Below are positions 6,325 through 43,103 of a DNA stretch of 56,203 nt, piece after piece. Each line of letters begins with the position of its first letter. The first letter of the stretch is position 1. Under the pieces are notes generated by a model, which saw nothing but the letters and a program-made list of their open reading frames with translations, was not told the origin of the DNA and ran no database searches. Both the position numbers and the translations under genes were made by a program. Source of the DNA: a virus (taxonomy: Duplodnaviria > Heunggongvirae > Uroviricota > Caudoviricetes); IMG/VR virus record IMGVR_UViG_2778260992_000008, positions 1-56,203 of that record. One strand, 5' to 3'.

Positions 6325-6426
6325 TTATGGATTAACTAGCAGATACAAACCGCCGAACAAAGCGACATTAACAGCGATAGCCATCGCGATCGCGAAAGCC
6401 AGGGCGAACATGCGTTTACCGTTCAT
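6325..6426 (-). CDS. small hydrophobic peptide (33 aa)
   Basis: MNGKRMFALAFAIAMAIAVNVALFGGLYLLVNP; RBS AGAGAGGA 8 nt upstream; not in track (<60 aa). Confidence 0.3.
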   Translation of the reverse strand: MNGKRMFALAFAIAMAIAVNVALFGGLYLLVNP

Positions 6427-7975: not shown

Positions 7976-8623
7976 ATGAAAACAAAATGGTATGACTTAG
8001 CAAAACAACTCATGCGGGCGCAAGGTATGAGCCAGGATTCATTGGCGGACCTGATGGGGATCACGAAAGGCGGCTTATCGCACTGGCTGAACGGTCGCCG
8101 TGAGCCAAATCTTAATGATATTGCGCGGATCATGCGGGCGCTTGGTCGTCGGCAGTTTACGGTCACACATGATGGGATGGTTATTGATGATTCACTTTCT
8201 AATACACTGCCGGGAGCGCCACCGCTCGACGTAGGGCGTTATCCGGTGATTGACTGGAAAGACGCAGGAAACTACATGGAAGAAGCAAAACGCGCATCAT
8301 TACCGCACGTTAACACTAGCGTGATTTGTTCGGATGATAGTTATTGGCTGGTTGCAAAAGGTGAATCGATGAACGCGCCGCAAGGATTGAGCATCCCGGC
8401 GGGAACGATGATACTTGTTGATCCACACGCGCCAGCTATTGACGGCAAACTGGTTATAGCCCAATTGGAGGAAGGGCAAACGCCGACGTTTAAACAGTTG
8501 ATTATTGATGGAGGTCAAAGGCTTTTACGCTCGCTTAATCCGTTGTATCCACCAATCCCGCTAAATCCTGAATCAAAAATTATTGGCGTGGTGGTGGACG
8601 CGAAGATCGTAAACCTGCCATAA
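7976..8623 (+). CDS. cI-like repressor, HTH plus S24 LexA-type peptidase domain
   Basis: N-terminal HTH (SQDSLADLMGITKGGLSHWLNGRR); C-terminal GESM Ser and FKQL Lys dyad; divergent from replication genes. Confidence 0.85.
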   Translation: MKTKWYDLAKQLMRAQGMSQDSLADLMGITKGGLSHWLNGRREPNLNDIARIMRALGRRQFTVTHDGMVIDDSLSNTLPGAPPLDVGRYPVIDWKDAGNYMEEAKRASLPHVNTSVICSDDSYWLVAKGESMNAPQGLSIPAGTMILVDPHAPAIDGKLVIAQLEEGQTPTFKQLIIDGGQRLLRSLNPLYPPIPLNPESKIIGVVVDAKIVNLP

Positions 8624-8732: not shown

Positions 8733-8775
8733 GTATACAAAATGGATTGACTCGACATATCACAGGGCGTATATT
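8733..8775 (+). promoter_or_regulatory. sigma70-like early promoter with upstream ACAAAATGG element
   Basis: TTGACT (8747-8752), 17-nt spacer, TATATT (8770-8775); GTATACAAAATGGA immediately upstream. Confidence 0.55.
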
Positions 8776-9098: not shown

Positions 9099-9389
9099 AT
9101 GAATGCGAAGATCATTTACGGTAACTGTGAGAGCAAATTAAATGCACGGAAGCGCCGCCGGATGAAGCGGGCAGCCGAACAAGACGAAGGCCCGCACATA
9201 CAGAAGATTGATAAAGTGGAAAAAGCTATTCGCTTTGCAAATGAGGAAAGATGCAAATCAAATAGCGTTAAAGAACGTCGCAAGGGCGCGACAAAATGGT
9301 ATCAGGAAAATGAAAGCGGCAACTACTTCCACGCAACGCAGCCGCGCCAGCTTGGGGAGATCCCGTTAGATAAAGTTCGATACCATTAA
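9099..9389 (+). CDS. hypothetical basic protein (96 aa)
   Basis: Strong RBS AAGGAGAAAAGATT-ATG; first ORF after a ~320-nt leader. Confidence 0.5.
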   Translation: MNAKIIYGNCESKLNARKRRRMKRAAEQDEGPHIQKIDKVEKAIRFANEERCKSNSVKERRKGATKWYQENESGNYFHATQPRQLGEIPLDKVRYH

Positions 9390-9419: not shown

Positions 9420-9539
9420 ATGGTTATTCAGGCGCTTCAATTCAAACTGGCAGTAGCGGAAATGCTTCACGATGCCGAAATGTGGAGCGCCGCGAATAAA
9501 GCCTTATACGTAGTGTTAACAGCGAAGGAGATTAAATAG
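9420..9539 (+). CDS. small hypothetical protein (39 aa)
   Basis: RBS GGAGGTGA; stop overlaps the GTG start of erf. Confidence 0.3.
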   Translation: MVIQALQFKLAVAEMLHDAEMWSAANKALYVVLTAKEIK

Positions 9540-10174
9540 TGAAAACAGAGTTACACAAAAAGCTGTGGACGATTCAGCAAACGCTGAACGCGCCGAAAAA
9601 TCAGCGTAATAATTTTGGCGGGTATAATTACAGGTCGGCGGAGGATATTCTAGAGGCGGTTAAACCACTGCTTCAAAATATCACGCTGACTGTAAGTGAT
9701 GAAATTGTCCTGATCGGCAATCGCTATTATGTGAAAGCAACTGCAACATTAAGCGACGGTGAAGACGTAATAGCGGTAACTGCTTACGCCAGGGAGGAAG
9801 AAAGCAAGAAGGGTATGGATGCAAGCCAGCTAACAGGAGCGACATCAAGTTACGCGCGAAAATATGCTTTGAACGGCTTATTCTGCATTGATGACGCAAA
9901 AGATCCTGATACTGATGCTTACGCGAAACAGACAAATCAACAGCCGCGACAGCAGAAAAACCCGCCAAAACAACAGCAGCAGAAATCGCCGCCAAATCCT
10001 GATGAAGTATTAGCACGTTTCTGTGATGCAGCAGCAAAAGCGCCGGACGCTAACAAGCTGCGTGAAATATTTGGCAAATGTTGGAAATTACTACCGGAAG
10101 GATCGGAACATCGAATCAAGGCAAAAGATGTTTATGACATCCGGGTCGCAGAACTTAACGGGGAGATGGGTTAA
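9539..10174 (+). CDS. erf: Erf-family ssDNA annealing recombinase
   Basis: LNAPKNQ.N.FG.Y.YRS.EDILE..KPLL and IVLIGNRYYVKATAT...GATSSYARKYALNGLF match P22 Erf; GTG start. Confidence 0.8.
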   Translation: MKTELHKKLWTIQQTLNAPKNQRNNFGGYNYRSAEDILEAVKPLLQNITLTVSDEIVLIGNRYYVKATATLSDGEDVIAVTAYAREEESKKGMDASQLTGATSSYARKYALNGLFCIDDAKDPDTDAYAKQTNQQPRQQKNPPKQQQQKSPPNPDEVLARFCDAAAKAPDANKLREIFGKCWKLLPEGSEHRIKAKDVYDIRVAELNGEMG

Positions 10175-10590
10175 TGAGTTTAAATTCAATTACGCTGGGC
10201 GGGAATATCGGAAATGACATGGAAGTCCGCTACACGCAAAGCGGCAAAGCGATCGGTAGCTTCCCGTTAGCTGTAACGAATGGCTACGGCGATAATAAGC
10301 GGACAATGTGGATCACTTGTCTGGTATTTGGTGAGCGTGCGGAAAAATTAGCGCCGCATATCCGCAAGGGTGGAAAAATAGTGGTAAGCGGTCGCCTGGA
10401 TGTTCGGCAGTTTGACCGGAACGATGGCACGAAGGGGACGGCGGTCGAAGTGGCGGTTAATGAGTTCGAATTCATGAACGTTAACCAACAAGGCCAGCAG
10501 CAAGGCCAGCAGCAGAAAGCGCCGCCGCAGCAGCAGAATAATAACGGGAATAATCCGCCGATGGACTTCGACGACGATATTCCTTTTTAG
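10174..10590 (+). CDS. ssb: single-stranded DNA-binding protein
   Basis: OB-fold N-terminus, Gln/Gly-rich linker, canonical acidic tail PPMDFDDDIPF. Confidence 0.85.
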   Translation: MSLNSITLGGNIGNDMEVRYTQSGKAIGSFPLAVTNGYGDNKRTMWITCLVFGERAEKLAPHIRKGGKIVVSGRLDVRQFDRNDGTKGTAVEVAVNEFEFMNVNQQGQQQGQQQKAPPQQQNNNGNNPPMDFDDDIPF

Positions 10591-10597
10591 AATCAAT

Positions 10598-10885
10598 GTG
10601 TTAGCGATGAGTGATTATCTAAAACCGCCACCGCCACCACGAACAAAAGAGCAAGTATTAAAAGAAGCCCGTGATCAAATCGATCATGGGCTTTTTTTAT
10701 GCGGCACGGCAGCGGATCGGATGGCGAAAAGATTTAGTGACCTGTACGCAAAGCAAATATGGTTCGACAACTGGCAGGCAAGTTTTTACCCACTGCAAAG
10801 AAAACCGGATATGCATTGGCCTGAATATGTCGATCCACGTATGCGCAAATATCGCGGTCGTATGGGCCAGGTTATTAATGATTAA
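10598..10885 (+). CDS. hypothetical protein (Pro-rich N-terminus)
   Basis: ORF in track; non-ATG track start, in-frame ATG at 10607. Confidence 0.3.
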   Translation: MLAMSDYLKPPPPPRTKEQVLKEARDQIDHGLFLCGTAADRMAKRFSDLYAKQIWFDNWQASFYPLQRKPDMHWPEYVDPRMRKYRGRMGQVIND

Positions 10886-10898
10886 TGAGGTGTTAATC

Positions 10899-11150
10899 AT
10901 GACAGCTACAACATTAAGCGAAAATAACGGCAGAGGTTTTCAGAGGACTGCGGAAAGTCTTGATGATAGTGACGTATTTGTTGATTTCGGCGGCGGTAGC
11001 TATGAATTCGAAACATCGGCTGGATGGGTAGATAAATGGCCTTTCCCAACGCGCCAGGAATTAAGCGAACGTAAATCATTTGGCGAAGATGCCGAACGCC
11101 TGGCGAATAATAAATGGCTTGATAAATTCATTACGGAGGGTGGCAAATGA
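10899..11150 (+). CDS. hypothetical protein (83 aa)
   Basis: ATG 10899 with RBS GAGGTG; in frame inside track ORF 10671-11150. Confidence 0.4.
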   Translation: MTATTLSENNGRGFQRTAESLDDSDVFVDFGGGSYEFETSAGWVDKWPFPTRQELSERKSFGEDAERLANNKWLDKFITEGGK

Positions 11151-11260
11151 ATCTCGCAAAAATTGCCGCATTGCTTGCGGCTGTAGCGGTGGCGGTGCTG
11201 TATCTCAGCGTATCGCTTTATATTACGGTGGCGATCATCAAACTGATTACTAATATGTGA
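11147..11260 (+). CDS. small hydrophobic peptide (37 aa)
   Basis: MNLAKIAALLAAVAVAVLYLSVSLYITVAIIKLITNM; ATGA overlap with upstream stop. Confidence 0.3.
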   Translation: MNLAKIAALLAAVAVAVLYLSVSLYITVAIIKLITNM

Positions 11261-11268
11261 GGCTAATT

Positions 11269-11388
11269 ATGAAAGTCGGTAAGGATATTGTAACGGTTGC
11301 GCTTTGCGTTATTTGTTTCCTGTTTACGGTTGTGTTTTGCGGAGCACTGGCGGCGGTGATTGGCTTTATTGGTAAAGGGTGGATGTGA
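11269..11388 (+). CDS. small hydrophobic peptide (39 aa)
   Basis: MKVGKDIVTVALCVICFLFTVVFCGALAAVIGFIGKGWM; RBS GTGAGG. Confidence 0.3.
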   Translation: MKVGKDIVTVALCVICFLFTVVFCGALAAVIGFIGKGWM

Positions 11389-11675
11389 TGATGTTATGGG
11401 ATGCAAAGGCGGGTGATCTCGTTGTCTTGCCCGCATATCGTAGTGACCCTGGCCTGGTCGTGCTAAGTAAACCGGAAGATCAGAACGGGATTGTTGAACG
11501 TCCGGTGCTCGTAAAATACCTCGACGGGACACTAATCAAGCCGCGTTATTTTGATGCGGTCCAGCTTAAAGCGCGTAACGTGAAGTTTAAGCCGTTCCGC
11601 GATTACGCCAACAGATACTGGCGGCACTTGTTTGCCGGACTGAACGGAATGTTCGGGGTATTCTATGAATATTAA
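11388..11675 (+). CDS. hypothetical protein
   Basis: ORF in track; ATG 11388 overlaps upstream stop. Confidence 0.4.
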   Translation: MMLWDAKAGDLVVLPAYRSDPGLVVLSKPEDQNGIVERPVLVKYLDGTLIKPRYFDAVQLKARNVKFKPFRDYANRYWRHLFAGLNGMFGVFYEY

Positions 11676-11850
11676 GAAAGTGAAACACTTGAAAGGCGGT
11701 GAGCGAATAAGGGCGTGGTACGGCTACGAATTCACCGTGACGGCCTTCGATCTGCTGGCTGGCGGTGAGGTGGCTATTTACGATGAAGAATATCAGGAGG
11801 TGGGCCGCTGGCACCTGGAACAATATGTCGAGGTGTTAAATGAAAATTAA
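11665..11850 (+). CDS. hypothetical protein
   Basis: 61-aa ORF, overlapping tandem arrangement. Confidence 0.35.
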   Translation: MNIKKVKHLKGGERIRAWYGYEFTVTAFDLLAGGEVAIYDEEYQEVGRWHLEQYVEVLNEN

Positions 11851-12172
11851 ATTCCATAAAGCATATGATAGCGCGACAAATAAGCTATCACTATTTATCG
11901 AATTCGAACGCCGGATCGTGGTTGTACCTTATTCGCGGCGCTTCAATGACGCTGGCGGGCGGCGACAATTCGCGATCGATATGCTGTTACGCGGCTGCGG
12001 CCTTATGCGCCCGCTATCTGATTTGAAACGAATGATGCCTGGATCGTTCGGTCAGATTGATGAAATAGAAATAAGCCCGGAAGAACTGAAACGGGAGCGT
12101 GATTTATTCCTTTCAAGCGAAGGTATCCCGTTTAATTCAGAAACTGAAATGCGCTGGCATCACCCGTTATAA
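11840..12172 (+). CDS. hypothetical protein
   Basis: 110-aa ORF, overlapping tandem arrangement. Confidence 0.4.
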   Translation: MKIKFHKAYDSATNKLSLFIEFERRIVVVPYSRRFNDAGGRRQFAIDMLLRGCGLMRPLSDLKRMMPGSFGQIDEIEISPEELKRERDLFLSSEGIPFNSETEMRWHHPL

Positions 12173-12183
12173 GGATAAATATC

Positions 12184-12804
12184 ATGAACGACATCAAAAC
12201 AGCTTATTCACTTGGCAGCGAAGGCATGTTAATTACTCGCTACACAGAGGACGCAAGTTTTCACGAAGTGGAAACGAAGGACTATCACGAAGTCATTAAA
12301 GATATGGATGCAGGCGCGTATGACGGCGATTTAAACCTGGCCCTGCAAATTGCTGATCTTGTAATGGATGCGTCGATCCGCGATTACGTGTCTTTAAGCG
12401 CGGAAGAGAAAACATCGGTAGCGCGTTACGTATTCTGCCTCACTTTCGTAAAACGCATGGAAGAGGATTTCGGACGCGTGCCAGTACCGGAAGAACTGGA
12501 CCCGCTCGCATATGGTAGCGCGGTGATTGTCCCACTGGGGGACGGGGTGATGGGTAGCGCTTCGTTGCATACAGTCCGCGAACTGATGCGCACTATCCTT
12601 GAGGCTGGCGTGCTTCAGAAAGCGGTTGAAGATGGACACATCGAGAAAAACGCAAAAGAATTTATGCCGCTTATTTATGGCGAGATGGTCGGTAATGACA
12701 TGCGGGCTAATGATTTTGGCGTCCAGGCGGTGGCCTCAGTGCTGAATGAAGCGCGGAAACGTGCACAGCCAATGCCTCACCCGGAAAAACGTGTACTTCA
12801 TTAA
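12184..12804 (+). CDS. hypothetical protein (206 aa)
   Basis: ORF in track with upstream purine-rich RBS; no motif recognised. Confidence 0.5.
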   Translation: MNDIKTAYSLGSEGMLITRYTEDASFHEVETKDYHEVIKDMDAGAYDGDLNLALQIADLVMDASIRDYVSLSAEEKTSVARYVFCLTFVKRMEEDFGRVPVPEELDPLAYGSAVIVPLGDGVMGSASLHTVRELMRTILEAGVLQKAVEDGHIEKNAKEFMPLIYGEMVGNDMRANDFGVQAVASVLNEARKRAQPMPHPEKRVLH

Positions 12805-12807
12805 TCG

Positions 12808-12823
12808 TGTGACATCGTTCACA
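12808..12823. promoter_or_regulatory. perfect CRP-type palindrome TGTGA-N6-TCACA
   Basis: TGTGACATCGTTCACA; lies ~18 nt upstream of a candidate -35 (TTGTCC 12841-12846). Confidence 0.4.
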
Positions 12824-12903
12824 TAAATATACATTTTGTATTGTCCCGCTGTATCCGTTTTGTAAACTGAAGTTAGAAGGTATACAGAACGGAGGGCGGG
12901 AAG

Positions 12904-13086
12904 ATGACAAACTTTGAACGTAACCACAAAAGCAAAGTAAACCCGCATTTCATCATTGAGCGCACGTTAGGCGGACTATTCGCGATCCTGGTCCCGGCGG
13001 CGGCTGTAATGCTCGTTTACATGGTCATCGACCTGATCATTAAAGCCTTTAATAACGGGATCTGTATGTACGCGGTTTGCTATTAA
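12904..13086 (+). CDS. small membrane protein (60 aa)
   Basis: RBS GGAGGG; hydrophobic core LGGLFAILVPAAAVMLVYMVIDLII. Confidence 0.4.
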   Translation: MTNFERNHKSKVNPHFIIERTLGGLFAILVPAAAVMLVYMVIDLIIKAFNNGICMYAVCY

Positions 13087-13097
13087 CGGGGTGCGAT

Positions 13098-13316
13098 ATG
13101 GAACGGGAAATCATGCTGTATTGTGTCGAAGGTGGCGTAGGTCCGGGCGCTTACGTCGCCGGGCGGAAATATCCAGCAAACGAAGTGCTAAGCCATGAAC
13201 AATGGCGGGAGGACGCTTATCACGTAACTGTATGGGGCGCGGACGTCCAGGGCGTCGAGATGATCGGCATCGAGATGTATTTAGGGCGCTTCGATTACGC
13301 GGTTATGGAGGCTTAA
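13098..13316 (+). CDS. hypothetical protein
   Basis: ATG 13098 with RBS GGGGTG; inside track ORF 13077-13316. Confidence 0.4.
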   Translation: MEREIMLYCVEGGVGPGAYVAGRKYPANEVLSHEQWREDAYHVTVWGADVQGVEMIGIEMYLGRFDYAVMEA

Positions 13317-13318
13317 TC

Positions 13319-13417
13319 ATGTGGCTGATTGATTTAATCCTGGCTTGCTGGTTGATTGTTCTGGTTGGTTTTGTCGGGTATTTCGCTTGGGAAGAGGGAA
13401 AACACAATGGACGCTGA
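13319..13417 (+). CDS. small hydrophobic peptide (32 aa)
   Basis: MWLIDLILACWLIVLVGFVGYFAWEEGKHNGR. Confidence 0.3.
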   Translation: MWLIDLILACWLIVLVGFVGYFAWEEGKHNGR

Positions 13418-13496
13418 AATGATCTTTATGGCTTGTTGCTGTGGGATCGTCGCGGTTGGTCTGTTTCTCCGCTGGGTGATTGAAAAATATTTATGA
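13407..13496 (+). CDS. small Cys-containing hydrophobic peptide (29 aa)
   Basis: MDAEMIFMACCCGIVAVGLFLRWVIEKYL; RBS AGAGGG; overlaps the previous mini-ORF. Confidence 0.25.
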   Translation: MDAEMIFMACCCGIVAVGLFLRWVIEKYL

Positions 13497-13504
13497 GGCT
13501 GAAT

Positions 13505-13699
13505 ATGAAAAAGGTTGGCATCTATACATTGCCGGATAACGCTGAATTGGCCGGGATTGGTTTTCTCGGCTGTTATTACTACAACAGTGTAGGCGATATT
13601 TATCGTGTGCGTTTTGTTAATGGTGTGCAGTATTTTTGCAGATTACCAGACGTTACATTGATCGACCTTATCCGGGAGGTATCGTTACATGCGGTTTAA
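13505..13699 (+). CDS. hypothetical protein
   Basis: ATG 13505 preceded by GAGG; inside track ORF 13493-13699. Confidence 0.4.
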   Translation: MKKVGIYTLPDNAELAGIGFLGCYYYNSVGDIYRVRFVNGVQYFCRLPDVTLIDLIREVSLHAV

Positions 13700-13892
13700 A
13701 CATTACAGAGAATGGAAAATTCCAGAAGCAGCAACAAAGGCCGCACCTGGTAATTTTTCGGGCGTTTATTTTTATATGGATGGCAAATGGTATTTCGGCA
13801 GCAGGCCGGATCACTATTATCAAGAAATGTGTAAGCCTCACGTATGGGATATTAAAGAACGCGTGAAAGGCGGGGTAATTGAGGACGTTTAA
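13689..13892 (+). CDS. hypothetical protein
   Basis: 67-aa ORF, overlapping tandem arrangement. Confidence 0.4.
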   Translation: MRFKHYREWKIPEAATKAAPGNFSGVYFYMDGKWYFGSRPDHYYQEMCKPHVWDIKERVKGGVIEDV

Positions 13893-14114
13893 ATGTTAAG
13901 AGAAGTGTTTCACTTTTTTGGGGCGTGGCTTTTAGCCGCGCTTTTATTTTTCCTGGCGTGCGCCGTTGTTATTGCCGTCCTGATCGTCGGCGCAATGTTT
14001 ATCACATGGTCGCTTCCTGATGTTCAGTCGTGGGCGGAATTGCTTTTGGGTATACGCGTGCTATTCGCTTTTAGTGTTTTCGTGGGTTTTTTCTGGGTGG
14101 CCTCGACTTATTGA
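13893..14114 (+). CDS. small integral membrane protein
   Basis: 73 aa with two long hydrophobic segments. Confidence 0.45.
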   Translation: MLREVFHFFGAWLLAALLFFLACAVVIAVLIVGAMFITWSLPDVQSWAELLLGIRVLFAFSVFVGFFWVASTY

Positions 14115-14133
14115 GATGATCCGTGGTGATTAT

Positions 14134-14367
14134 ATGGCTTTATTCAACCTGTCAGAGCCGCAATTCAACGCCGTAAAAACTGCCGCACGCGCGGCGCTTT
14201 CTGCCTGCAAAGCAGAGGTAGAAAGAAACGGATATAGCGATAAAGCCACGCGGCTGATATTAGATAAGCATTATCGCAAGGTCGCCCCGCTAATCAGTAT
14301 TGAGCGTTTTGTGTGGTTGGTGGGATATCTGAATAACCGCTGGGGAGCAGATCAGGATTATTTCTAA
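14134..14367 (+). CDS. hypothetical protein
   Basis: ATG 14134 with RBS GGTGA (alternative ATG 14116); inside track ORF 14020-14367. Confidence 0.4.
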   Translation: MALFNLSEPQFNAVKTAARAALSACKAEVERNGYSDKATRLILDKHYRKVAPLISIERFVWLVGYLNNRWGADQDYF

Positions 14368-14376
14368 GGGGGCGTA

Positions 14377-14915
14377 ATGAAAAATGATTACGGCGGAAGC
14401 CATACGCCAAAAGAAATAAAGGACTTATGGCAAACGCCAAAACCCGTTTTTAGAGGAATGGATCGTGAATTCGAATTCGTCGCGGATGTGGCGGCAAACA
14501 AGGCAAACGCATTAGTTCCGCGATATATAACCGAAGAGATGGACACACTCCATTATCCGTGGGGAGCGGTAGCAATGCCTGGTGAGTATGTCTGGCTTAA
14601 TCCGCCATATTCGAATCCGGGCCATTCGTAGATAAGGCAGCGATGGAACATCACCGAAATCATATTGGCTGTGTAATGTTGTTGCCCGCTGATATCTCTG
14701 TTAACTGGTTTATGAACGGCCTGGAGACGGCAAGCGAATGTCGCTTAATCACGCGCGGGCGGCTGGCGTTTATTAATGCTGCGACGGGTAAGTCAGCAAG
14801 CGGAAACAATAAAGGGAGCTTGTTCTTGATCTGGCATCCACGGTGCAAACATGAATGTATTTTCACGCAGATAACACGTAAAGAGCTATACGCAAGAGGT
14901 GCAAATAATGACTAA
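14377..14915 (+). pseudogene. phage Dam-type DNA N6-adenine methyltransferase, reading frame disrupted
   Basis: ORF 14377-14631 has WQTP...WLNPPYS then stops; downstream frame 14643-14915 carries the VMLLPADIS...WF segment; a 1-nt frame change near 14610-14630 would join them. Confidence 0.55.
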
Positions 14916-24819: not shown

Positions 24820-24882
24820 CCATAATCGCGCATAAAAAACAAATAGATTAAAATATTTCCTAACAATGCGAAATTGTATTCA

Positions 24883-24905
24883 CCCGGCATCGCGCCGGGT
24901 TTTTT
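24883..24905 (+). terminator. rho-independent terminator upstream of lysis cassette
   Basis: CCCGGC-ATCGC-GCCGGG hairpin followed by TTTTTT. Confidence 0.6.
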
Positions 24906-24925
24906 GCTTTGTTGGAGGTAAATCT

Positions 24926-25126
24926 ATGTTCGACAAAATACGGGAGGCGTGCGCGTATGTGACCGGGGCCGTAACTGCTTTTTTCGGCGCGATAACCATC
25001 AATGACGTTGCCGTCTTTGTGGGTATCTTATCAACCATAGGCACATTTGCCGTTAATTATTACTTCAAATCACAGGAGAACAAGCGAGCGCAAGAGGAAC
25101 ACGACGCGCGAATGGGGAATAAGTAA
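24926..25126 (+). CDS. holin (66 aa)
   Basis: RBS GGAGG; two hydrophobic helices and charged C-terminus; directly precedes endolysin. Confidence 0.5.
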
Positions 25127-25127
25127 C

Positions 25128-25619
25128 ATGATTAGCCAATCGCTGAAGAATAAAATTATTGCTGCGGCGGCTGGTGGGGCGATCGCTATTGCGGCGGTGA
25201 TGGTTAAACCATTAGAGGGCGTGGAGTACGATCCCTATCGTGATGTTATCGGTGTATGGACCGTTTGTTATGGTCACACCGGAAAAGACATCATGCTGGG
25301 TAAGACTTACACGCAATCAGAATGCGATGCTTTGTTAAACAAAGATCTCCACAAAACCGCAAAAGCGATTGACCCATATATTAAAGTCGAAATATCAGAT
25401 TTTACCCGCGCGGCGCTTTATTCATTCGCCTATAACGTAGGCGCTACCAACTTCAAAACATCAACCTTATTAAAACTACTCAACGATGGCAAGAAATCCG
25501 AAGCGTGCGCCCAGCTTAAACGCTGGATATATGCTGGTGGTCAAAAATGGCAAGGTTTAATCAACCGCCGTGATGTTGAATATGCCGTTTGTGAATGGGG
25601 GGAAACGTGGACAAGATAA
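25128..25619 (+). CDS. SAR endolysin, T4-type lysozyme family
   Basis: N-terminal signal-arrest-release helix [17 protein letters not shown] followed by [23 protein letters not shown] catalytic region. Confidence 0.75.
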
Positions 25620-26077
25620 AGGCGTTAATCATCGCCGTGATTGTTTGCATTGTTGCCGGACTCACCGCCGCGCTTTGTTACTACCAGTCAACCATAAACA
25701 CGCTACAGACTGAACTAACGACAACTCAAGGCGCATTAAAAACGGCAAGTAACACTATCCAGCAAATGAAGGATCGAAACGCCGAACTGTCAAAACTTGA
25801 TAAGAGGTATCACGATGAAATTAAAGCTATCAGGTCCGATATTGCCGATCTGCGCAGCGGTATTGATAGCGGCGCTATCAGGTTGCACGTCAACGCAATA
25901 CCCGTGCGAGTGCCCGACACCACCGGAACCGCCAGCAGCATTGATGGAGCCGCCTGTAGACTCACTTCCGACGCTGAATCGGCTTATCTATCCCTCAGAG
26001 AACAACTAAAAGAGAAAGACGCGAAGATTACCGGATTACAGAGCTACATCAAAACGCAGTGCTTACGCAAAGAATAA
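25595..26077 (+). CDS. i-spanin (Rz-like)
   Basis: N-terminal TM helix then coiled-coil periplasmic region; overlaps endolysin end (GTG at 25607 is an alternative start). Confidence 0.6.
25815..26009 (+). CDS. o-spanin (Rz1-like lipoprotein) nested in +1 frame of i-spanin
   Basis: Lipobox LSGC after signal [20 protein letters not shown]; Pro-rich mature part. Confidence 0.6.
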   Translation: MKLKLSGPILPICAAVLIAALSGCTSTQYPCECPTPPEPPAALMEPPVDSLPTLNRLIYPSENN

Positions 26078-26345: not shown

Positions 26346-26888
26346 ATGGCTAAGGGTAAAGGCTTGAAATTGCCTCATTTCAAAGTACCGCTCTTTGAGC
26401 ATACAACAGTCTTCTTTTGCCCGACCCGCGAAATCTTCTATGAATTTTGCGAGCGTGCACATATTCCAATCGAACCTGATTTCGAACTGGCTGGCGGCCT
26501 GACTTTAACCTGTACAGGTGAGAACGGCGGCAATTTCTATGTTGTAGCTGTATTCGATCATGAGATGGGTACGCTAGTTCATGAATGCGCCCATAGTACA
26601 TTCCATGTATTAAGTGACGTGGGCGTACTGGCGACCACTGACGCAACTCATCCGGCGAATGAAACCTACGCCTACATGATTGGGCGCATGTTTGACACTT
26701 TCTTCCCGATCCTGGCTGAATCAAACGAAGCGGAAGTGGCAGCACAACAGGCGGCGGAAGTGGTAGAGCAAGCGTTAGAACAGGCAGAACAGCCGAAGGA
26801 AGAAGAAAAACCCGCGAAGAAAGGGAAACGTAAGCCGAAGGCAAAAGAAGCGCTTGTACCGCGCGTAATGAGCTTTAGACGGGGGTGA
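26346..26888 (+). CDS. hypothetical protein with HExxH motif and Lys/Glu-rich tail
   Basis: RBS CAGGAG; LVHECAHSTFH; C-terminus EEKPAKKGKRKPKAKE. Confidence 0.45.
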   Translation: MAKGKGLKLPHFKVPLFEHTTVFFCPTREIFYEFCERAHIPIEPDFELAGGLTLTCTGENGGNFYVVAVFDHEMGTLVHECAHSTFHVLSDVGVLATTDATHPANETYAYMIGRMFDTFFPILAESNEAEVAAQQAAEVVEQALEQAEQPKEEEKPAKKGKRKPKAKEALVPRVMSFRRG

Positions 26889-26890
26889 TC

Positions 26891-26962
26891 ATGGGCGACT
26901 TTCTGTTACTAATAGTTTTGTTATTTACTGGCCTTGCATTGCTCGATGTTATAACGAGGTAA
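26891..26962 (+). CDS. mini-ORF 1 of 7, single-helix hydrophobic peptide (23 aa)
   Basis: MGDFLLLIVLLFTGLALLDVITR; RBS GGGGGTGA. Confidence 0.35.
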   Translation: MGDFLLLIVLLFTGLALLDVITR

Positions 26963-26965
26963 CAT

Positions 26966-27061
26966 ATGGATGAGTGCATCATTGCCGGATTAATCGGAAT
27001 ATCTGTATTTCTGGTGGGCTTTGTTATTGCCGTGCTGATAACAGTAAAGAGTAAATTATGA
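26966..27061 (+). CDS. mini-ORF 2 of 7, hydrophobic peptide (31 aa)
   Basis: MDECIIAGLIGISVFLVGFVIAVLITVKSKL; RBS GAGGTAA. Confidence 0.35.
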   Translation: MDECIIAGLIGISVFLVGFVIAVLITVKSKL

Positions 27062-27132
27062 ACGCTTACGATCTCATCTGGTTGTTGGTGCTCATCGTAG
27101 GTATTGGCGTGAATATCTATAGATTATGGTGA
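27058..27132 (+). CDS. mini-ORF 3 of 7, hydrophobic peptide (24 aa)
   Basis: MNAYDLIWLLVLIVGIGVNIYRLW; ATGA overlap with mini-ORF 2. Confidence 0.35.
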   Translation: MNAYDLIWLLVLIVGIGVNIYRLW

Positions 27133-27136
27133 CGCA

Positions 27137-27211
27137 ATGGAGTTTTACGAAATTATAGCATGTGTAGCCTTTGCCTTTGTCCTGTATTTCTGGTGGAAGA
27201 ATGTTGTATAG
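27137..27211 (+). CDS. mini-ORF 4 of 7, hydrophobic peptide (24 aa)
   Basis: MEFYEIIACVAFAFVLYFWWKNVV; RBS GGTGA. Confidence 0.35.
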   Translation: MEFYEIIACVAFAFVLYFWWKNVV

Positions 27212-27219
27212 GTGAAAGC

Positions 27220-27300
27220 ATGAACGCATACGAAATGCTATTGCTGGTGGCTGTTATTGCAGTTATTGCCGTTGATTTTTATCGAGGGTTAAAAAGATGA
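27220..27300 (+). CDS. mini-ORF 5 of 7, hydrophobic peptide (26 aa)
   Basis: MNAYEMLLLVAVIAVIAVDFYRGLKR; RBS AGGTGA; paralog of mini-ORF 3. Confidence 0.35.
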   Translation: MNAYEMLLLVAVIAVIAVDFYRGLKR

Positions 27301-27365
27301 GAGAGTCAGATTTTATCTATATGGTTTTAGCTATTGTCTTTATCGCCCTGGCTTTCGCAATTTAG
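27297..27365 (+). CDS. mini-ORF 6 of 7, hydrophobic peptide (22 aa)
   Basis: MRESDFIYMVLAIVFIALAFAI; ATGA overlap with mini-ORF 5. Confidence 0.3.
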   Translation: MRESDFIYMVLAIVFIALAFAI

Positions 27366-27377
27366 CAGGAATAAGCA

Positions 27378-27461
27378 ATGAAAGAGCTATTCGACTGGTT
27401 GGAAGTATTAACATACTGCGCAAGTTTTGTAGCTTGCGTATATATCATCAATAGATATTGA
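27378..27461 (+). CDS. mini-ORF 7 of 7, hydrophobic peptide (27 aa)
   Basis: MKELFDWLEVLTYCASFVACVYIINRY; RBS AGGA. Confidence 0.35.
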   Translation: MKELFDWLEVLTYCASFVACVYIINRY

Positions 27462-42846: not shown

Positions 42847-42933
42847 ATGCTGGTTGATGGCTTAGTAATGGTATTTATTATCGCGGTAAGTATGGCTATT
42901 TTTTACGAAATCGATAGTCGGAACGACAAATAA
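42847..42933 (+). CDS. small hydrophobic peptide (28 aa)
   Basis: MLVDGLVMVFIIAVSMAIFYEIDSRNDK; ends just before terminator. Confidence 0.3.
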   Translation: MLVDGLVMVFIIAVSMAIFYEIDSRNDK

Positions 42934-42965: not shown

Positions 42966-43103
42966 TTAGAAGTTCATGTGCATCAAGCCCATTGGGTGAG
43001 CGTGCGCCATGTTCTCAGCTATTGCGCACCAATCCCAATCCGCAGCGTGCACGCCAAATACTATCAAGCCCATTGCGATTAGCGCTAAAACTTCGATTTT
43101 CAT
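42966..43103 (-). CDS. small secreted His/Met-rich peptide (45 aa)
   Basis: MKIEVLALIAMGLIVFGVHA signal-like N-terminus then ADWDWCAIAENMAHAHPMGLMHMNF; RBS GGGGTGAACC. Confidence 0.35.
   Translation of the reverse strand: MKIEVLALIAMGLIVFGVHAADWDWCAIAENMAHAHPMGLMHMNF

Follow-up and report, generated by a model that had tools for sequence, protein, structure and literature searches.

Predicted single-helix membrane microprotein genes in the early region of an mEp021-group temperate coliphage

The subject of this work is a 56,203-nt stretch of phage DNA (IMG/VR record IMGVR_UViG_2778260992_000008, positions 1 to 56,203; hereafter the window), and in particular four very short open reading frames (ORFs) of its early region, which we designate micro-genes A to D. 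Our analysis indicates with high confidence that these are real protein-coding genes for hydrophobic peptides of a single helix, because they are conserved among relatives, show a low ratio of nonsynonymous to synonymous substitutions (dN/dS) exclusively in their own frame, change in length by whole codons, retain their Shine-Dalgarno (SD) sequences and are coupled to their neighbors. Together with two ORFs located elsewhere in the window (G and H, described below), comparative analysis identifies them as six unrelated ORFan families of transmembrane (TM) microproteins under purifying selection, at least four of which lie in the early lytic operon. The four genes of the early region are:

Micro-gene A: 11147-11260, + strand; 37 aa, single TM helix, MNLAKIAALLAAVAVAVLYLSVSLYITVAIIKLITNM
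Micro-gene B: 11269-11388, + strand; 39 aa, single TM helix, three Cys, MKVGKDIVTVALCVICFLFTVVFCGALAAVIGFIGKGWM
Micro-gene C: 13319-13417, + strand; 32 aa, single TM helix, MWLIDLILACWLIVLVGFVGYFAWEEGKHNGR
Micro-gene D: 13407-13496, + strand; 29 aa, single TM helix, Cys cluster (ACCC or CCCW), MDAEMIFMACCCGIVAVGLFLRWVIEKYL

Results

Start signals, hydrophobic helices and chance expectation

An earlier inspection of the window (the original prediction) had placed hydrophobic ORFs of 29-39 codons with ribosome-binding-site-like sequences at 11147, 11269, 13319 and 13407, and all four were found there, on the + strand. Each begins with ATG and is preceded at 6-8 nt by an SD-like motif: GGAGGG for A (11135-11140), which is kept in 29/29 unique sequences; GAGG for B (11259-11262); GGAGG for C, sitting at the end of a 72-aa gene; and, in this window, GAGGGA for D (13394-13399), inside the 3' end of C. 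The 17-residue Kyte-Doolittle maximum of the four peptides lies between 2.6 and 3.0, and their uncharged hydrophobic core spans 18-29 residues. AlphaFold2, run without an alignment, modeled A as one continuous helix over residues 3-35 (predicted local distance difference test, pLDDT, 95) and B as one continuous helix over residues 4-38 (pLDDT 87). Judging from the flanking charges, C and D would be oriented N-out/C-in, while the topology of A and B is ambiguous, with a weak preference for N-in. Cys is notably frequent within three of these helices: B contains three such residues, C has an invariant C10, and D carries a CCC or CxCW cluster. A lipobox has been defined for the lipoprotein exclusion proteins of the Lpp, Cor or Llp type in the mEpimmI phages (PMC11893012), with the pattern [LVI][ASTVI][GAS]C following a signal sequence; by inspection, none of the Cys residues of B, C or D sits in such a context with G, A or S immediately before it.

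ATG ORFs of 20-50 aa having both an SD and a TM-grade stretch were then counted, using 500 dinucleotide-preserving shuffles as the null. The early block (10598-14400) contained 4 such ORFs vs 0.022 expected, a number that 0 of the shuffles reached, and the entire + strand contained 9 vs 0.07 expected.

The four genes are tightly packed in a manner that denotes translational coupling, with SDs lying within the 3' ends of the preceding genes. The ATG of A overlaps the stop codon of an upstream 83-aa gene (ATGA), the SD of B overlaps the stop codon of A, the stop codon of B overlaps the ATG of the following gene (TGATG), C and D overlap by 11 nt, and the SD that serves the gene after D overlaps the stop codon of D. 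One sequence, GAGGCTnAAT and then ATG, recurs as a junction motif in front of B, C and the gene at 13505. Written as GAGGCTnAAT(n)ATG, it is found on the + strand at 11259, 13308 and 13495; 4 occurrences were seen in the whole window on both strands, where ~1.7 are expected by chance. This motif may be a short-homology site for cassette exchange.

Conservation and selection

Related loci were collected by means of the flanking genes, a procedure unbiased toward the mini-ORFs, and comprised 7 GenBank phages, 34 IMG/VR contigs and later additions. Conservation across related phages was one of the checks that the original prediction had proposed, its absence, along with that of translation, being named as the outcome that would speak against it: A, B and D were intact, with conserved SDs, in 42/43 loci, represented by 17, 25 and 15 distinct peptide variants, respectively. 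The lengths of the intact copies differed by whole codons only (A 35-39 aa, B 38-40 aa, D 29-32 aa). A metagenomic locus (L025) carries a 1-nt deletion in the A-run at the start of A, either a sequencing error or a pseudogene.

Pooled pairwise Nei-Gojobori estimates on the related sequences gave a dN/dS of 0.20 in frame for A (vs 0.96 and 1.51 in the shifted frames), 0.34 for B (vs 0.77 and 1.30) and 0.20 for D (vs 0.83 and 2.14). For C the in-frame value was 0.14-0.20, with shifted values of 0.49 and 6.4 in a first set and ~1.1 in a second one, all of them resting, as for H, on 3-4 variants only. Variable sites fell preferentially at the third codon position (positions 1/2/3: A 22/17/34, B 22/21/35, D 18/9/23). 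Invariant residues were distributed along the whole helix, and TM-grade hydrophobicity was kept in all variants.

The STEC308 prophage (L050, 169-882) illustrates how these genes withstand rearrangement. A 714-nt KilA-N gene is inserted there exactly between A and B, and B, preceded by a different SD, remains intact. This prophage has also undergone a deletion that removes gene E (described below), the 72-aa gene and the front of C, and D is kept together with its SD, located in what is left of the 3' end of C.

With their length (≤50 aa), their ATG and SD, one helix of bilayer length and selection at the protein level, A to D have the attributes of small membrane proteins. The reading of the original prediction, that the early region encodes small single-helix membrane peptides, is therefore upheld by conservation, dN/dS, SDs and coupling, and from these data we infer that A to D are translated and that their products insert into the membrane.

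Phage identity and operon context

Positions 10500-14200 of the window match seven GenBank phages of the mEp021 group (mEpimmI), temperate phages of E. coli, with ~79-83% DNA identity (mEp021, mEp010, mEp013, mEp044, mEp515, mEp554 and MagusPhagus), and by its sequence the window belongs to this group of temperate coliphages. Since positions 13250-13560 match an E. coli RM9245 prophage with 100% identity, whereas 11100-11420 show only 95% identity to the same strain, the window is a mosaic relative and not the exact RM9245 prophage. PHROG profiles identified a CI-like repressor (7976-8623), an N-like antiterminator (9099-9389; phrog_271), a holin, an endolysin and an Rz spanin (24866-26077) and a small terminase subunit (at 27458). 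The top promoter match of the region (TTGACT-17-TATATT, 10/12, 8747-8775) is located just upstream of the N-like gene.

From left to right the window carries the N-like gene, a 39-aa ORF, erf, ssb, abc2, the 83-aa gene, A, B, further genes and D; after D come further genes, an Ipe homologue and a methyltransferase, in the same order as in mEp021, mEp010 and MagusPhagus. In mEp021 the sites of action of the N-like protein Gp17 are nutR1, which lies upstream of gp17, and nutR2, which lies downstream of gp32 (PMC11893012). By synteny, A to D would lie within the rightward early operon antiterminated by Gp17 (N-like). As the gene order is syntenic with that operon, they are predicted to be delayed-early lytic genes, silent in the lysogen.

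The 39-codon ORF between the N-like gene and erf (9422-9541, + strand; mEp010_24) is also conserved, and it was considered as a member of the set and excluded: its peptide is amphipathic, not hydrophobic, and non-membrane.

Micro-gene C as a cassette

Micro-gene C is an exact 88-nt insertion between a shared SD/spacer, GAGGCTTA, and the ATG of D, for which it supplies a replacement SD. It was found in few lineages only, namely two IMG/VR contigs and E. coli RM9245 and E21845/O/A. A diverged copy, with 69% aa identity and the same 11-nt overlap, is present in KKa019 beside the other D subtype. Because of the exact insertion and of this diverged copy with its identical overlap, C reads as a cassette that is mobile and yet under selection. 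That C arose from D by tandem duplication was considered and is unproven (hhalign probability of C vs D, 10.5%).

Families, distribution and annotation

Neither PHROGs nor Pfam gave a significant match to A to D (best E-values 0.04-0.5), PADLOC gave no match, and no Rfam family matched anywhere in the window. NCBIfam, searched with the neighboring genes only, gave no match; when ten neighbor genes were scanned in NCBIfam and Pfam, DUF7274 alone was matched (13689-13892). Paralogy among A to D, G and H was rejected, as shuffle-controlled Smith-Waterman comparisons gave z <3.6 for all pairs; the hhalign probability of A vs B was 0.8%.

The gene block appears narrowly distributed. A phmmer search of B against 1.84 billion representative proteins recovered only 2 clusters; a conserved motif of A and the alignment of a 206-aa neighbor had no match in 185,579 species-representative genomes; the A-B block was present in 35/5,426 complete E. 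coli genomes; and the D motif was found in metagenomic sequence on 16 contigs, of which roughly half measure 40-55 kb, the size of a phage genome. A tblastn search of A and C against a phage collection gave no match, a result that is uninformative owing to low-complexity masking, with A missing even its known orthologues. The exact peptides are present in public protein collections (contigs: A 451, B 40, C 124, D 15, G 152), always as "hypothetical protein", and the exact H peptide is absent from them.

Gene callers and curated records treat these loci differently. PHANOTATE/pharokka predict A, B and D as genes in six phage records, among which mEp010_29, _30 and _37 and MagusPhagus CDS0113, 0112 and 0106 are direct orthologues of A, B and D, respectively, existing as gene calls only. 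In contrast, the RefSeq Prokaryotic Genome Annotation Pipeline (PGAP) leaves all four unannotated in RM9245, where its gene calls are interrupted at these sites by 238 nt and 189 nt; the curated mEp021 record (MH706966) likewise has no coding sequence (CDS) at these sites and places "TERM_2" inside A. The paper describing the mEpimmI genomes does not discuss A to D, nor does the word "transmembrane" occur in it (PMC11893012). The gene that follows B (11388-11675, + strand; 11391-11675 for the PGAP name) is named "toxin-antitoxin system toxin subunit" by PGAP and in the mEp021 record. This name appears unfounded, with no support in NCBIfam, Pfam, PADLOC or the Protein Data Bank (PDB), and PDB sequence searches with the two genes flanking A and B returned nothing useful.

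A hairpin inside A and a conserved non-coding gap

Two elements of a different nature accompany the micro-genes:

GC-rich hairpin GCCGCATTGCTTGCGGC: 11165-11181, within codons 7-12 of ORF A; terminator-like on the minus strand, where a T-run comes after it; corresponds to mEp021 TERM_2
Non-coding gap: 12805-12903, + strand; upstream of E, the 72-aa gene, C and D; contains a perfect TGTGA-N6-TCACA palindrome

The hairpin was evaluated in 24 unique variants of A against a null in which codons were resampled with the peptide fixed. It was kept in 23/24 variants vs 9.3 expected, and in its terminator-like form in 20/24 vs 1.8 expected, and four different complementary versions of the stem occur. 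Its lack of a U-tract on the + strand rules it out as a sense terminator. At 11294-11266 there is a weak antisense promoter-like site; the best antisense promoter opposite A and B, however, was no better than the codon-resampled null (median fraction ≥ observed, 0.75) and its hexamers were not conserved. As no antisense promoter is supported, we take the hairpin as a second constraint on ORF A and not as evidence for an antitoxin RNA; it might act as an antisense terminator or as an mRNA structure.

The gap at 12805-12903 is the only sizeable non-coding gap of the early block, and its mean column identity among the seven phages is 87%, vs ~80% for the whole block. No sigma-70 match of 9/12 or better was found in it among the matches listed. 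A regulatory role toward the genes downstream of it (E, the 72-aa gene, C and D) is probable. The palindrome resembles the CRP consensus, and the relatives have GTGAT-N4-ATCAC. In mEp010 and mEp554, PHANOTATE puts a spurious TTG ORF within this region. The STEC308 deletion mentioned above joins this element to the 3' half of C, and both rearrangements of that prophage break at or near gene boundaries.

Other small membrane genes and the size of the repertoire

Outside the four micro-genes, the window contains other genes for small hydrophobic proteins:

Gene E: 12904-13086, + strand; 60 aa, one TM helix; dN/dS 0.065
Gene F: 13893-14114, + strand; 73 aa, two hydrophobic helices; part of the operon that holds A to D, directly upstream of the Ipe homologue
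Micro-gene G: 6325-6426, - strand; 33 aa, single TM helix; downstream of a replication O-like gene
Micro-gene H: 42847-42933, + strand; 28 aa, hydrophobic; followed by an intrinsic terminator

Gene E is lineage-specific, being present only in the two C-carrying IMG/VR contigs and in RM9245, where PGAP annotates it; it co-occurs with C in the closest relatives and not in KKa019. Gene F was matched in 41/43 loci, with the ORF intact in most of them and many variants. PGAP/RefSeq names it "cell division protein FtsK", probably an artefact of TM-segment similarity.

Micro-gene G, whose flanking charges would place it N-in, is intact in 39/41 loci of the mEpimmI type, with a conserved SD (GAGAGGA) and a dN/dS of 0.16 in frame vs 2.05 and 1.53 in the shifted frames. 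Micro-gene H is found in a lineage-specific insertion within an accessory island of the tail region; it occurs in 3 IMG/VR contigs, with amino-acid changes and a dN/dS of 0.10 (3 sequences only), and is absent at the same site from the mEp010 and mEp021 records. These patterns identify G and H as genuine genes as well. Both had been assigned to accessory insertions by the original prediction, which is correct for the ORF at 42847, whereas the one at 6325, on the minus strand, is near-core in the group. A 45-aa ORF close to H on the opposite strand (42966-43103, -) encodes a signal peptide (…VHA|AD…) and then a tail of 25 residues, rich in Met and His (AENMAHAHPMGLMHMNF), with the look of a metal-binding segment. 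The conservation of this ORF extends to mEp021 and mEp010 (mEp010_107), and its dN/dS is 0.16.

Between a 180-aa gene and the small terminase subunit lies an array of seven tandem hydrophobic ORFs of 22-31 aa (26885-27461, + strand), of which those at 27058 and ~27220 are clear paralogs (z = 9). The conserved hydrophobic ORFs of ≤45 aa are A, B, C, D, G, H and these seven, to which the 45-aa signal-peptide ORF may be added. The scan described above gave 2.14 matches per 10 kb here, vs 0.21 in lambda (1 match) and 0.92 in ~98 kb of early-region DNA of unrelated phages. The claim of an unusually large repertoire is thus borne out in part, as an enrichment, although the type of gene itself is commonly seen. 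In a survey of intergenic small ORFs of the Enterobacteriaceae, microproteins were mainly hydrophobic and only 5% had predicted TM domains (PMC11188072).

Discussion

Our results point to A to D as genes whose peptide sequence matters, and the question that follows is how such peptides would act. We propose that they are inner-membrane microproteins that act by binding host or phage membrane proteins within the bilayer, a model to which we assign a probability of roughly 0.5 and which was reached by analogy and by exclusion of the alternatives. According to this model, A to D would be transcribed from the promoter-like site at 8747-8775 through the N-like gene, erf, ssb and abc2; the peptides would appear within minutes once a cell is infected or the prophage induced, and would not be expressed in the lysogenic state; and each would insert in the inner membrane as a helix-in-bilayer ligand, binding or modulating a specific inner-membrane protein of the host or the phage by a mode that does not involve pores. 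The outcome could be host takeover or the exclusion of superinfecting phages during lytic growth. The analogy is drawn from KdpF (29 aa), AcrZ (49 aa) and MgrB (47 aa), which bind membrane complexes (PMC12648545), and from Gp11, a small membrane protein made early by phage PhiNM1, which binds and inhibits MurG and DivIC (PMC11237401). Several observations weigh against this proposal. A specific interface predicts a conserved helical face, and the test for periodicity of conservation was not significant (p = 0.13-0.54); the neighboring genes are ORFans that offer no functional context; the families are confined to one phage group and for that reason have no characterised homologue; and the selection estimates for C and H come from the few variants indicated above.

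Among the alternatives, the foremost, which we nevertheless consider unlikely, is that A to D are membrane-damaging toxins, either similar to those of type I toxin-antitoxin systems with an antisense RNA or Kil-like inhibitors that depolarise or permeabilise the membrane. Their size and hydrophobicity agree with type I toxins, which are shorter than 60 aa (19 aa in IbsC), have one TM helix and belong to systems associated with prophages (PMC12648545), and the minus-strand terminator-like hairpin in ORF A, together with the weak antisense promoter-like site, could be read in the same sense. However, apart from the small hydrophobic peptide, A to D show neither an antisense or divergent small RNA with a promoter nor an independent promoter with a structured leader; they form part of a polycistronic early operon with ATGA/TGATG coupling, no enrichment of promoters was found, the antisense promoter does not exceed its null and the Rfam search of the window was negative. 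Membrane depolarisation triggers holins prematurely. A depolarising role is accordingly disfavoured, since early expression would be expected to fire the phage's own holin, the phage has a separate and complete lysis cassette (24866-26077) and the features of type I toxins are missing. The location of A to D in the early operon, away from that cassette, and the lack of PHROG or Pfam lysis matches also argue against holins or lysis peptides. It is doubtful, too, that the peptides join E and F in a phage membrane complex, as its subunits or assembly factors, which might anchor replication or recombination or exclude superinfecting DNA; early exclusion proteins are known in T4 (Imm and Sp). The clustering of A, B, E, C, D and F within 3 kb of one operon favors such a complex, as do the adjacency of A and B in nearly all loci and the 11-nt C/D overlap in both diverged lineages of C; but C and E are dispensable, as their absence from most relatives shows, a 714-nt gene can separate A from B, and searches showed no homology to subunits of known complexes.

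The two remaining explanations deny a role to the peptides themselves. That A to D are translated spacers, leader or coupling ORFs that set the translation of downstream genes irrespective of peptide sequence, would account for the start/stop overlaps and for the SDs of the next genes in the 3' ends of A, C and D; the dN/dS values of 0.14-0.34, the invariant residues along the helix and the TM-grade hydrophobicity of all variants make this highly improbable. PGAP and the mEp021 record implicitly treat these loci as non-coding regulatory DNA, such as terminators or spacers, in which A to D would be chance frames, as reflected in the two PGAP gaps of RM9245 and in TERM_2 of MH706966, placed inside A with no CDS. 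Against this stand the 4 ORFs vs 0.02 expected, the frame-specific contrast in dN/dS, the in-frame length changes, the conserved SDs and a hairpin that, without its + strand U-tract, is no sense terminator; the comparative data effectively refute the chance-frame reading.

A broader idea, which we regard as speculative and rather improbable when taken as a whole, is that the mEpimmI phages carry at least 13 independently evolved single-helix microproteins (A to D, G, H and the array), about a tenth of their genes, gained as self-contained cassettes that insert exactly at start codons and carry the next SD, in the way of the 88-nt C cassette, each targeting a different inner-membrane complex, with ORF A encoding in addition a selected antisense-strand terminator hairpin. 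If this were true, the group would represent a natural library of transmembrane peptide inhibitors.

In comparison with known systems, type I toxins (Ibs, Hok/Gef, Ldr, TisB) are likewise small hydrophobic single-helix peptides often located on prophages (PMC12648545), whereas A to D are operon-embedded and coupled, without a conserved antisense promoter, an Rfam antitoxin RNA or an independent promoter and leader. The N-antiterminated early operons of lambda (Kil/cIII) and P22 (kil/c3), whose small host-modulating peptides lie beside recombination genes, have a similar layout, with an N-like antiterminator, erf, ssb and abc2 followed by peptides of ~40-50 codons. Kil and cIII are soluble or amphipathic and not transmembrane, and to our knowledge they have no detectable homology to A to D. 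PhiNM1 Gp11 is, as A to D would be, an early small membrane protein of a phage, formerly "hypothetical" (PMC11237401); it differs in its Gram-positive host and in that its function was experimentally shown, and no similarity was found, Gp11 itself not having been directly compared. With KdpF, AcrZ, MgrB, CydX and MgtS, the micro-genes share a length of 28-50 residues, one TM helix with minimal flanks, the lack of an enzymatic domain and the tendency to be missed in annotation (PMC12648545). Unlike these bacterial proteins, A to D are phage-encoded, belong to an antiterminated early lytic operon, adjoin no gene for a known membrane target and show no sequence similarity to them.

In summary, A to D are an ordinary, well-known kind of phage gene and not a new principle. 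PGAP and the curated mEp021 reference genome miss several conserved genes, and the value of the present analysis lies in improving their annotation and in providing candidates for experiments. If one of these peptides has a specific host membrane target, as is the case for Gp11, it would constitute a compact peptide inhibitor of an inner-membrane machine of E. coli.

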